Below, one piece after another: positions 5,648 through 13,669 of a DNA stretch of 24,000 nt. Position 1 is the first letter of the stretch; each line of letters opens with the position of its first letter. Origin of the DNA: Methanococcus aeolicus Nankai-3 (lineage in GTDB: Archaea > AGJL01 > Methanococci > Methanococcales > Methanococcaceae); contig NC_009635.1 in the NCBI RefSeq assembly GCF_000017185.1, forward strand, positions 1,177,189 through 1,201,188, in the 5' to 3' direction. A program made the position numbers and the translations under genes. The notes beneath the pieces are model-generated. The model had not been told where the DNA came from, did not search any database, and saw only the letters and a list, made by a program, of their open reading frames with translations.

Positions 5648-5758
5648 TGGTGTGTGTTTAAAAAGTCAAATTTCATGGATTTATTAAGTCATAGTAATAT
5701 TCGGTCTTTTTCAGGCCATATATGATAAACTCAAATTTTATGTTATTGAATTAAATTA
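5648..5758 (-). repeat. Composite of degenerate repeat fragments (family-2 left end plus a short family-1 copy)
   Basis: 5646-5672 (TA-TGGTGTGTGTTTAAAAAGTCAAATT) matches the family-2 end at 13452-13480. 5692-5715 (TAGTAATATTCGGTCTTTTTCA) matches the family-1 right end in reverse complement. 5742-5758 (GTTATTGAATTAAATTA) resembles the family-1 left end in reverse complement. Boundaries are approximate. Confidence 0.5.
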
Positions 5759-5793
5759 ATAATAATTTAGAGGTAGTTTGATGTAGTTTATAT

Positions 5794-6615
5794 TTATTTT
5801 ATCTTACCATACGGGGCAGGAACATATTGAACCGATGGTTTTTGACCGGTTGGTTGTTTGTATAAATCAAATAAATCATACATTGTTTTTGGAACATTTG
5901 TATTTACTTTTATGCCCATATCCTTTAACTTATTGATTGTAAGAGGATAATCATGCGTCCATACTCCCGTAGATATCAATTCAGTAATATATTTTGCTTT
6001 TTCTTCACTCATTTTATCTTTTAATAACCAATATACAAACTCCCCCACTTGATTTATTGCTTTTTTTGCTATGTCTCCTAAAATTAATGTTTCGTCTTCC
6101 AATTCATCTACATACTTTGTATCTATAACATTTAATATAGATGCAGCAGGATATTGTCCAATTTGAGGGTCAACCGGCCCCATAACTGCATTTTTATCCA
6201 TTATTATTTCATCTACGGCAAGAGATATTAAACTACCTCCGCTCATGGCATAATGGGGTATTATTACGGTAGTTTTTGCCTTATGTTCTTTTAAAGCCAT
6301 GGCTATTTGCTCACTCGCAAGCACAAGCCCTCCGGGAGTATGAAGTATTAAATCTATGGGGACATCATCAGAAGTCATCCTAATTGCTCGCAGAACTTCT
6401 TCACTATCTTCCATATTTATAAACCGATACAATGGAATACCAAATAAAGCCAATGTTTCCTGCCTATGTATCATTGCGATTACTCTTGTTTTTCTCTCTT
6501 TTTCAAGTTTCTTTATGCAATTATATCTTTGTATTAATTTTAATTTAAACATTAACTGAGGATAAAAGAATAAGAATATGAAAAATATCCAAAAAATATT
6601 ATCTATAGCCAACAT
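5794..6615 (-). CDS. Membrane-anchored Clp-fold serine protease, SDH (serine dehydrogenase proteinase, PF01972-like) family
   Basis: 273-aa ORF. N-terminal hydrophobic helix, then IAMIHRQE...PIDLILHTPGGLV...IPHYAMSGGSLISLAVDEIIMD, characteristic of the SDH/SppA-like ClpP-fold group. GGGTGA SD-like motif 3 nt upstream of the ATG at 6615. Confidence 0.8.
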   Translation of the reverse strand: MLAIDNIFWIFFIFLFFYPQLMFKLKLIQRYNCIKKLEKERKTRVIAMIHRQETLALFGIPLYRFINMEDSEEVLRAIRMTSDDVPIDLILHTPGGLVLASEQIAMALKEHKAKTTVIIPHYAMSGGSLISLAVDEIIMDKNAVMGPVDPQIGQYPAASILNVIDTKYVDELEDETLILGDIAKKAINQVGEFVYWLLKDKMSEEKAKYITELISTGVWTHDYPLTINKLKDMGIKVNTNVPKTMYDLFDLYKQPTGQKPSVQYVPAPYGKIK

Positions 6616-6740
6616 AATTCACCCAAATTTAAATTAATATATTATATGTTCAAGAACTATGGTAAATATTCTTTATGTGTTCCAAAATATTAAGTCATAT
6701 TTCGATATTTTCATAAATTACAATAATATATTTATATAAA

Positions 6741-6834
6741 TAGTCCGAAGATTTACCCCGCACGAAACAATGAAATTTCAAAATTTCCTTTGGAAATTTG
6801 ACTTACAATGAACAACTGTTTCGAACACACCAAC
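6741..6834 (-). repeat. Family-2-like intergenic element with central hairpin
   Basis: Right end GTTTCGAACACACC (6819-6832) is the reverse complement of the GGTGTGTTCGAAA end seen at 13456 and 5648. Left end is TAGTCCGAAGATTTAC. The hairpin AAATTTCC-TTT-GGAAATTT at about 6781-6799 sits next to AAGTCAAATT, as in the copy at 13467. Boundaries are uncertain; the element could extend to the ACTA-TA at 6843-6848. Confidence 0.5.
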
Positions 6835-6844
6835 AATATGATAC

Positions 6845-6904
6845 TATATATACACCATATGATATATACAATATAATATATACAATATAATATATGCTAT
6901 ATAT
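6845..6904. repeat. Degenerate tandem repeat of a 14-bp AT-rich unit (ATATATACAATATA)
   Basis: Two exact units at 6862-6875 and 6876-6889, flanked by diverged copies (ATATATACACCATAT at 6845-6859, ATATATGCTATATA at 6890-6903). Lies in the divergent promoter region between the protease and AAA ATPase genes. Confidence 0.6.
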
Positions 6905-11200: not shown

Positions 11201-13271
11201 ATAATTCAATATTGTCTGTGGTATTTGTTTCCACCGCTTTATTTATTAGCCTAACTACGCCCCCTGCATTACCTATCGGGAATAAACTATTTACTGGTGG
11301 CTTCATTTTTCTAGGGGCTGCTTTTTCTGGTCGCCCCATTCTTGCACCGATGTAAATGTATGCCTTTCTTTTTATTTCAAATTGCGAAAGCAAATTTATA
11401 AAATGTATTGGATTTTTTGATTTTTGACATTTTTCTTCTAAATTTTGATTTTCTAATAAATCCTTATTATTTTCAATATCATACCCCAATGAATATAATA
11501 AAGGATAATATTCGTCTATGATTATATATTGTTCTTTATTTTCAGAATAAATTACATCGTGGGGGCATCCAATTAATTCTAATATTCTTTTTGATTTTAT
11601 ATTGTTTTCATCTTTATTGTTGTATTGTATTTTCCAACTGCTATTAATGGCATCAAAATTATTATTATTATTATTATTATTATTATTATTATTATCAATT
11701 ATTTCTTCTTTTCCAGTTAATAACCAATTTCTTAACTGTAATATGTCCTCTTTTGATACATCATGCCAATAATAGGTATATTTTGGGTGTAGTGGCGTGT
11801 TTGTGTTTAATGCATATATCGTAGCTTCTTTGGGAGTTGGATTATTTATAAATTCATCGGTATATTTTATGTTTTTTGAAATTAATATTTTTTCATACCA
11901 TTCTTCGCACCAACTAGATGGAACAAGATTATGGTTATTCTCCAAAAAATCCCCATAATTTACAAGTATATCTCCTAAAAACAATATTTCTTCAACTGAT
12001 TTCCTGTATTCTATTGCTTTTTCGATTGTATCTATTTTTAATACCGTCCCATTTTTTAATTTTGCGATTGGTGGTTCAATGCTATCTACTGGAACAACAC
12101 AGGTTGCTTTTCCCGGTCTTTCAGTTTTTAACTGCGTTCCAATTGCCATAAATTCATCTACAAGATACATAAGGGCAGGGTGAAATCCATCTGTTGCAAA
12201 ACCTGTATTTCTACTTCTACCATATCTTAACCTAAATCCTCCATTTGTGGAAGGATGCGCAAAAACAGGTCTTCCCGCAATTACATCCCCTATAAACTTA
12301 GTTACTGCTTCAATCTCCACATCATCATATATTTTATGATATTCCTCTAATTCTTCATCGGTAAATTCGGTGTTTTCGTCTTCGCCTTTTAATTCATCAG
12401 ATTTTTCCTCATCCTCATCTTTCTTTTTTTCCTTTAATTGTTTTAACCAATCCCATCCTTCCATACCAAGTTTATCAACATGCCTTAAAATTTTTGGAGA
12501 TTTTAACAGCACACCCTCTACAAGTGCAAGGAGAGCTCCACCCCGTATACAATTTGTTTCTACTCTATCCAAATCCCTATGGCCACTAACCTCCACATCA
12601 TCGGTAGTCTCCCCAGTAATTTCTATGGATATATTTTTTACAGCGGTCCGTATCTCATCAGGTGATGGAGAATATTGAAAACCTCCGACTTCTGATTGGT
12701 ATAAATCCACTTCCTCAACATATCGTTCTATTTCATCTTCGCTTGGGATATATTTATTTAATCCCATATTTTTTCTAACATAATCTCCGACTAATACCGC
12801 CAATGCCTGAGCTGTACCTCCTGCACTTCTAATAGGTCCTGCAAAATATATTGCTAAATATTTACTATTATCTTTGTTGGTTTTTATTTTTACCCCTGCA
12901 ATACCTTCAAGAGGGGCTGCAACAATTCCTTCTGTAATTATAGCTAACGCTGTTCTTACTGCCTGTTCCGCCAATACTTCGGGAGAGTCTGTTCCAAATT
13001 TTCCTTCAACAATTTCTTTTGCCACTTCAAGAGCAGCTGGCTCTTTACCCAATTCTATAACTAATTCCCTTATTCTACCAGATACATTTTTTGGACCTAC
13101 AATTCCCTCAACCCTGTCTGCCATATCATTAGCAAGTGGTATTTCTACATAATTATTTACATCATATCCTTTATTTCTGCATTTTTCAGCAATATTGTAA
13201 ATTTCTTTAACATTTTCTAAAATATTATTAAAATAAAATTCCATTTCCTTTGATGCTTTCACATGAACCAT
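8274..13271 (-). CDS. polC: DNA polymerase II (PolD) large subunit DP2, intein-containing precursor
   Basis: 1665-aa ORF. DP2 hallmarks are present, including the PYFHA-KRRNCDGDED catalytic region (split by the intein), Cys-cluster zinc motifs (CPNCG...CLFCG, CKCGAKY...CRKCG) and the N-terminal [11 protein letters not shown] region. GGTGA SD-like motif 4 nt upstream of the ATG at 13271. Confidence 0.95.
9027..10532 (-). mobile_element. Intein (502 aa) with LAGLIDADG homing-endonuclease domain, inserted in the DP2 NCDGDED motif
   Basis: The extein reads ...[11 protein letters not shown] | [10 protein letters not shown]...NIQMHN | CDGDEDGIF.... N-terminal Cys, block B TPDHP, C-terminal His-Asn and a +1 Cys are present. 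Two dodecapeptide motifs are seen: [13 protein letters not shown] and [12 protein letters not shown]. Removing the intein restores the contiguous RRNCDGDED. Confidence 0.9.
11658..11693. repeat. (ATT)12 trinucleotide microsatellite encoding a 12-residue poly-Asn tract in DP2
   Basis: Perfect ATT x12 on the plus strand, which is AAT x12 in the minus-strand reading frame ([17 protein letters not shown]). Confidence 0.95.
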
Positions 13272-13337
13272 ATATTCACCAAATATATATTTAAAAATAG
13301 TATAGATTATATGATATTAATAATTTTAGGTATATTA

Positions 13338-13451
13338 TAGTAAGTTCAAAAACTGTCCCTTTATTGTTCCAAATAATTAAGTGCAATGAATACATTAATA
13401 AAATATAGTTATTTATATAAATATATGGTGAAACAGTTCGAAGATTGACTA
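13338..13451 (+). repeat. Family-1 intergenic element, short form, copy D
   Basis: TA-TAGTAAGTTCAAAAACTGTCCCTTTAT at the left and GGTGAAACAGTTCGAAGATTGACTA-TA at the right. The interior is AT-rich and unrelated to copies A, B and C. Confidence 0.7.
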
Positions 13452-13453
13452 TA

Positions 13454-13618
13454 TAGTGTGTTCGAAAAGTCAAATTCTTACAGAATTTGAGTTATAATCC
13501 TTCGGATTTTATTCAATTCGTTCTCTATCATCCTATGCTATCTTGCTGTATTTAATATAATATAACAAAATGATAAGGAACATAGAATATATGATGTAAA
13601 GAGTTCTCGAACATACTA
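13454..13618. repeat. Family-2 element with 17-nt terminal inverted repeats
   Basis: Including the TA flanks, the left end TATAGTGTGTTCGAAAA (13452-13468) and the right end TTCTCGAACATACTATA (13604-13620; reverse complement TATAGTATGTTCGAGAA) match at 15 of 17 positions. The core annotated here excludes the TA flanks. Internal hairpins are CAAATTCT-TAC-AGAATTTG and AATCC-TTC-GGATT. Shares the TA at 13452-13453 with copy D. Confidence 0.7.
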
Positions 13619-13669
13619 TAAAAAAACCATATAATTAATTATACAAATATGATTGTTTAAAAAAATAAT

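Follow-up and report, generated by a model that had tools for sequence, protein, structure and literature searches.

The intergenic spacers of the methanogenic archaeon Methanococcus aeolicus Nankai-3 carry two families of small elements with constant terminal inverted repeats (TIRs) and TA flanks, and we conclude that these elements are probably MITEs (miniature inverted-repeat transposable elements) that were moved in trans by an IS630/Tc1-mariner-type transposase and that are now orphaned in M. aeolicus. The elements were noticed in a stretch of 24,000 nt (the window; positions 1177189-1201188 of the genome, which is one contig of 1,569,500 bp with 30% GC), for which an initial annotation, made from the letters of the window alone, had proposed MITEs mobilised by a transposase of this type. 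Copy number, empty sites, and IS630-like termini support that proposal. Both families together comprise about 185 small non-coding copies across the spacers of the genome.

Iterated nhmmer searches of the whole genome define family 1 as TA-TAGTYAATCTTC...GAAGATTGACTA-TA and identify 144 left ends and 150 right ends. When these ends are paired, 126 elements result, which range from 55 to 336 bp and have length modes near 110-135 and 160-290 bp. Their total of 20.2 kb corresponds to 1.3% of the genome, or to about 9.3% of what lies outside crude open-reading-frame (ORF) calls, and of the 1143 spacers 120 contain them. At a tolerance of up to 2 mismatches, the right-end 16-mer has 159 matches in the genome vs. 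0 for a reversed-pattern control. Family 2 (TA-TAGTRTGTTCGA...) has roughly 35 copies, with about 21 and 49 ends vs. 0 and 3 in controls. The initial annotation had held that a MITE family should have additional copies elsewhere in the genome, and the search with the termini found many. Comparison with 39 other Methanococcales genomes yields, for family 1, 142-159 matches here vs. 0-3 in most of the others (two Methanocaldococcus genomes score 14 and 5) and, for the family-2 pattern, 31 matches here vs. 0-1 in each relative; the right-end 16-mer, which was run on 30 of the relatives, has 0-3 matches per genome. Termini common to the spacers of distant species, which the initial annotation had named as an observation that would speak against mobility, are not seen in the other Methanococcales species. 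Among the Methanococcales compared, both families are, by these pattern matches, essentially confined to the M. aeolicus genome.

The families are defined by their TIRs (TAGTYAATCTTCRAA..CTGT for family 1 and TAGTRTGTTCGARAA for family 2). The family-1 left end, which occurs as a long variant (TAGTTAATCTTCAA..) and a short variant (TAGTAAGTTCAA..), matches the reverse complement of the right end at 11 of the terminal 12 nt, and, with a minor right-end variant, the repeat matches at 18 of 22 positions with a 2 nt indel. An ungapped scan for TA-TAGT...ACTA-TA pairs, which found 6, was too strict because of this indel. The family-1 termini are, as first described, imperfect inverted repeats of each other, but they match better than had been seen; the family-2 inverted repeat, first given as 15 of 17, is corrected to 14 of 17 (15 of 18). 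Behind the constant ends, the interiors of the family-1 copies are unrelated or modular. They form 23 clusters: 14 are singletons, several have 2-7 copies, and one has 72 copies that shared cassettes connect; a few copies (55-56 bp) consist of just the two ends placed back to back. Conserved TIRs with variable cores, the pattern first proposed from the copies in the window, are therefore a property of family 1 genome-wide, since the 23 interior clusters share the same ends. The elements also have the small size, the dispersed copies, and the absence of coding capacity of MITEs, the ORFs that overlap them being spurious frames of 60-90 aa.

TA is present on both sides of 89 of the 126 paired copies, most of the others are one mutation from TA, and adjacent elements in the genome usually have one TA in common. 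The immediate target context is A/T-rich. We compared Nankai-3 with a second strain (GCA_025449255.1; CP104873.1, 1,677,738 bp), reached through an identical protein, over six stretches of about 108 kb in total, in which aligned blocks are mostly 98-99.9% identical and a few segments are 95-97% identical. Four elements of Nankai-3 are missing from the second strain. For the element at 176981-177111, the empty site reads ...GTAAAA-TA-AATATA..., vs. TA-element-TA in Nankai-3; for the element at 1359123-1359346, the alignment is gapless only if one TA is kept; for the element at 1477471-1477718, the empty site has one TA, with a 1 nt difference beside it; and where Nankai-3 has the 56 bp element at 848704-848759, the second strain has a single dinucleotide, TG. 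A 121 bp copy present only in the second strain lies in the TA that opens the TAGT of a resident element at 178088, and there the TA is duplicated; a truncated copy remnant near 1479345 is also found only in the second strain. The five whole-element presence/absence sites each differ by the element plus 2 bp; the site itself is TA in four cases and TG in one. Within the Nankai-3 genome, 1260744-1260860 vs. 1287015-1286970 is a possible paralogous empty site with a single TA (87% identity over 47 nt, AT-rich); the other paralogous candidates, mostly low-complexity AT matches, were rejected. The TA duplication that had been only apparent from the window is thus matched by empty sites in a close strain that hold one dinucleotide (TA in three, TG in one). 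We conclude that there is direct evidence that the elements insert at TA and duplicate that 2 bp TA.

The termini connect the elements to a subgroup of IS630-family insertion sequences (ISs). IS630-family elements are present in 3 of the 40 Methanococcales genomes. A genome of the same genus (G009) has a 1.1 kb IS with a DDE_3 transposase and with ends TA-TAGTCAAG...CTTAACTA-TA in every copy examined (in longer form, TA-TAGTCAAGCAC...GTTCTTAACTA-TA); this enzyme shares 89% identity with a protein labelled 'IS630 family transposase' in Methanothermococcus sp. SCGC AD-155-C09, and its relatives are also annotated as ISH16-like or as 'CENP-B protein'. The IS630-family element of another genome, G034, ends TA-TAGTGTTTTTC. 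The 80 homologous loci examined in other genomes include an element of Methanotrichaceae with the end TA-TAGTTAATC and one of Nitrososphaerales that ends TA-TAGTCATTTG and begins TAGTCAT; many bacterial relatives begin TAGAGC or TAGCGC. Ends of the type TA-TAGTYA are common to the MITEs and the archaeal IS630 elements, and the identity stops after 7-9 nt. Because the first 7-9 nt and the TA flanks agree, the MITE ends belong to this IS630 subgroup; because the inverted repeats diverge after 7-9 nt, none of these IS630 elements is the cognate partner. The archaeal IS630-family ISs, with their TA flanks and termini beginning TAGTCAA or TAGTTAATC, differ from the MITEs in being autonomous and in encoding an HTH part and a DDE_3 part.

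The two Methanocaldococcus genomes, G022 and G027 (the latter of which we take to be M. jannaschii), have about 11 and 6-7 elements, respectively, of about 100 bp and of the form TA-TAGTCAATC(A/T)TCAAA ... central GC hairpin ... TTTGA(T/A)GATTGACTA-TA. The terminal 15 nt are those of family 1, and the interiors are unrelated. These elements differ from those of M. aeolicus in copy number (about 6-11 per genome vs. about 150) and in having one central GC hairpin inside. They may belong to the palindromic repetitive elements MJRE1-3 of M. jannaschii (Suyama, Lathe and Bork 2005, as cited in PMC2229807 and PMC2996958). Both genomes also have a second repeated end, TATAACCAATTATCAAA, which occurs 5-6 times per genome and probably belongs to another small element family with TA flanks.

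Most copies in M. aeolicus are old. Identity to the nearest paralogue has a median of 85%, and only 6 copies have a paralogue of at least 97% identity; the family therefore looks orphaned. Of 21 elements in the stretches compared between strains, 12-13 are 99-100% identical and 4 are those missing from the second strain; in 3-4, the interior differs by cassette indels (34 to 120 bp). Nearest paralogues are 82-84% identical for the four copies that only Nankai-3 has, and the 121 bp copy that only the second strain has matches 1033461-1033580 at 95% identity. Several polymorphic sites sit in unusually diverged flanks (95-97%). Because the paralogues are distant and the flanks are diverged, we read the strain polymorphisms as older insertions that are still segregating or have been lost, not as recent jumps, and not as proof of current activity in the strain.

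Taken with the ends, these results suggest how the families may have arisen. An IS630/Tc1-mariner (DDE_3)-type transposase supplied in trans would have bound the terminal repeats, excised the elements, and pasted them into TA sites; the gene for that transposase would no longer be encoded in the M. aeolicus genome; and the family would be the orphaned remnant of an amplification within the M. aeolicus lineage, with copies that would still segregate between strains as presence/absence variants.

Several observations weigh against this reading. Profiles for DDE_3, DDE_1, and mariner have no match in the genome, so that the initial statement that no IS630-type transposase lies in the window holds for the whole genome with these profiles. 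A tblastn search of the genome with the G009 IS630 transposase gives no true match; a weak match at 680963-681079 was rejected as lying inside an apparent NAD synthetase gene, its translation judged by eye. Long end pairs (631-3048 bp), considered as full-length elements, enclose ordinary genes, e.g., those for cobalt transport, an ABC ATPase, and a sensor kinase. Repeats of more than 400 bp in the genome comprise only five tnpB elements, the rRNA operons, and paralogous genes. The two Methanocaldococcus genomes with the same terminal 15 nt also have no DDE_3 match. The copies present only in Nankai-3 have no close paralogue, and the strain differences may be old segregating insertions or losses. 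Finally, the indel data would, formally, fit equally well if the unit were TAGT...ACTATA, inserted 3' of TA with no duplication. The initial annotation had proposed a search of the genome for an IS630-family or other transposase whose IS ends match those of the elements; none was found, and no IS630-type element with matching ends is present in the window, the whole genome, or the 39 other Methanococcales genomes. DDE_Tnp_1 sequences were rejected as sources, since TAGT-type ends are lacking both from the broken remnants at 551-553 kb and from the intact elements in M. jannaschii and G022.

The absence of a transposase could indicate that the elements are true mobile MITEs moved by an enzyme that is not recognisable as IS630/DDE_3, either an unannotated host-encoded protein or one that a Methanococcales virus or plasmid carries. 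A non-IS630 mover would explain why an IS630 gene is absent from every carrier genome (the three genomes with TAGTCAATC-type elements, M. aeolicus, G022, and G027, all have no DDE_3 match), and the conservation of the terminal 15 nt across two Methanococcales families, with interiors unrelated, suggests long-lasting recognition by some enzyme. We regard this explanation as unlikely: orphan MITEs are common; the TA flanks and TAG-type termini match those of bona fide IS630 elements of related archaea; the copies are old, so that loss of the partner suffices to explain its absence; and plasmid collections, phage collections, and viral contigs contain no candidate. The plasmid and phage collections have no match to the elements, a search of viral contigs with a 17 nt end gives 50 single chance matches and no pairs, and a scan of JGI metagenomes with a 22 nt end pattern gives 0 matches. 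It is equally unlikely that TA-TAGTCAATC elements are kept mobile across Methanococcales by an unrecognisable or virus- or plasmid-borne transposase, with a turnover of their hairpin cassettes that outpaces point substitution.

Movement in single-stranded form is very improbable. Hairpin repeats of the REP/REPIN type (repetitive extragenic palindromes and their paired, mobile form) could be moved single-stranded by a Y1 (HUH) transposase of IS200/IS605 or RAYT type and inserted by TA without duplication. The elements do contain strings of small hairpins in many copies, the genome does contain IS200/IS605 remnants (five tnpB elements, about 90% identical to each other, at 42.5, 318, 480, 627, and 950 kb), and the indel data alone do not separate duplication from insertion 3' of TA. 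However, the sole Y1 gene is an IS605-type tnpA in three pieces beside tnpB at 318-319.5 kb, as in an ordinary IS605, with no element ends nearby, and the genome has no single-copy Y1 (RAYT) gene flanked by the repeats. M. jannaschii carries related elements, yet that control genome has no Y1_Tnp match. Moreover, the constant parts are terminal inverted repeats, not subterminal hairpins; short copies fold no better than shuffled sequence (z = -0.8 and -1.7); and the termini match those of IS630 elements. The least probable explanation is that the conserved ends are host signals, that is, parts of promoters or terminators or small RNA genes, held by selection and not mobile. The elements are indeed intergenic and AT-rich, but they are not found in the other 39 Methanococcales genomes, the two strains differ in the presence of entire elements although their aligned blocks are mostly 98-99.9% identical, there is no preference for orientation or spacer type, and an Rfam search gives no match for the elements. 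This explanation is already contradicted, and an orphaned IS630/Tc1-mariner-type MITE family remains the reading that we favour.

The genomic placement of the family-1 copies is that of spacer repeats. The copies are wholly or almost wholly intergenic in 104 of 126 cases, and tandem spacers hold 75 of them, divergent spacers 32, and convergent spacers 19, which roughly follows how many spacers of each type there are. Orientation relative to neighbouring genes (45 vs. 30) has no significant bias. Head-to-tail dimers or trimers of family 1 are present at 364285-364677, 1136404-1136632, and 1214687-1214872; the junction common to these three loci is ACTA-TC-(A/T)GTTAATC instead of ACTA-TA-TAGT. 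Positions -7 and -8 of the left flank have raised G+C (0.47-0.49 vs. 0.22 in the background), and a palindrome, GGAGCTCC, often lies about 10-30 nt from the flanks of elements (window 2060-2068; elsewhere in the genome, e.g., 76100 and 161290). Logan short-read contigs of the strain, which match the genome at 100% identity, stop inside elements or at their edges, and the repeats therefore break assemblies.

The window, which also contains an archaeal rRNA operon and an archaeal RNase P RNA (Rfam), has five clear copies, named A to E, and two degenerate ones (Table 1). The coordinates, termini, and flanks first reported for the five clear copies, including the AA flank of copy B and the TGGT start of copy C, are all confirmed by the sequence. 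Copy A has the ends TA-TAGT...ACTA-TA, with TA flanks at 1787-1788 and 2053-2054; copies A and B are mutually inverted and 87-88% identical; and copies D and E have one common TA at 13452-13453, which is the right flank of D. The second strain lacks 34 bp of the interior of copy B (window 3667-3700). In copy C it has 120 bp of extra hairpin cassettes within a stem CGTTCT/AGAACG, and it has a TAGT start, so that the TGGT start in Nankai-3 is a point mutation. The two degenerate copies are real, but their description is revised: one is a composite of both families, and the other is family-2-like on the minus strand. With 6 of 11 spacers occupied, the density in the window is, as first noted, high; the mean over the whole genome is far lower, at about 10% of spacers.

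Table 1. MITE copies and degenerate copies in the window (window coordinates).
Feature	Coordinates	Strand	Description
Family-1 MITE copy A	1789..2052	+	264 bp; long left-end variant TAGTTAATCTTCAATAACTGTCC, internal hairpin cassettes, right end GACCGAAGATTGACTA
Family-1 MITE copy B	3505..3764	-	260 bp; one flank TA, other flank AA
Degenerate composite	5648..5758		Family-2-like left end (TGGTGTGTGTTTAAAAAGTCAAATT), then decayed reverse-oriented family-1 copy at about 5692-5758
Degenerate family-2-like copy	6741..6834	-	Minus strand begins TGGTGTGTTCGAAACAG; opposite end has a fragment resembling the family-1 right end
Family-1 MITE copy C	8115..8242	+	128 bp; TGGT start
Family-1 MITE copy D	13338..13451	+	114 bp; short left-end variant TAGTAAGTTCAA
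Family-2 MITE copy E	13454..13618	+	165 bp; ends TAGTGTGTTCGAAAAGT ... AGTTCTCGAACATACTA, TA on both sides

The differences between strains in copies B and C are accompanied by few point differences, and the 120 bp that differ in copy C comprise four hairpins. A cassette change between strains is also seen in the element at 1490990-1491174. In the second strain, one part of this 1491 kb element matches the 1280 kb element at 98.5% identity, which points to sequence exchange among copies. An indel of a different kind, a 134 bp insert in the second strain at about 846222-846238, is bounded by a 17 bp direct repeat, TAATATATATTTTAACT, and has no TAGT ends.

Plant Stowaway elements are among the known MITEs derived from IS630/Tc1-mariner transposons. 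RUP of Streptococcus pneumoniae is an IS630-derived MITE with IS630-Spn1 as its proposed mover (PMC2229807). The M. aeolicus elements resemble such MITEs, RUP in particular, in being 55-340 bp in length and AT-rich, in having TIRs and no ORF, in duplicating TA, in having many spacer copies, and in having variable cores behind constant ends. They differ from RUP in having no cognate transposase in the host or in the 39 relatives compared, in having interiors of interchangeable small hairpin cassettes that differ even between two strains, and in having a methanogenic archaeon as host. With the REP/BIME and REPIN repeats of Gammaproteobacteria, which are moved by RAYT, they have in common that they are intergenic mosaic repeats of small hairpin modules; REPINs, however, have no TIR/TA-duplication signature and depend on a single-copy Y1 gene, and the M. 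aeolicus elements differ on both points.

A literature search brought up no mention of MITEs in M. aeolicus. The elements explain roughly one tenth of this species' intergenic DNA, as well as assembly breaks in short-read data. For annotation, the spacers that carry them are best labelled as repeats and left out of searches for promoters, small RNAs, or short ORFs; the presence/absence sites are ready-made strain markers. TA-targeting MITEs of IS630/Tc1 type are selfish DNA of an already known kind, and the M. aeolicus family is new. For archaeal mobile DNA, the family poses modest questions, namely the missing transposase, the occurrence of the same ends in Methanocaldococcus, and the lability of the hairpin cassettes, and it provides a clear archaeal case of TA-targeting MITEs tied by their ends to the IS630/Tc1 superfamily.

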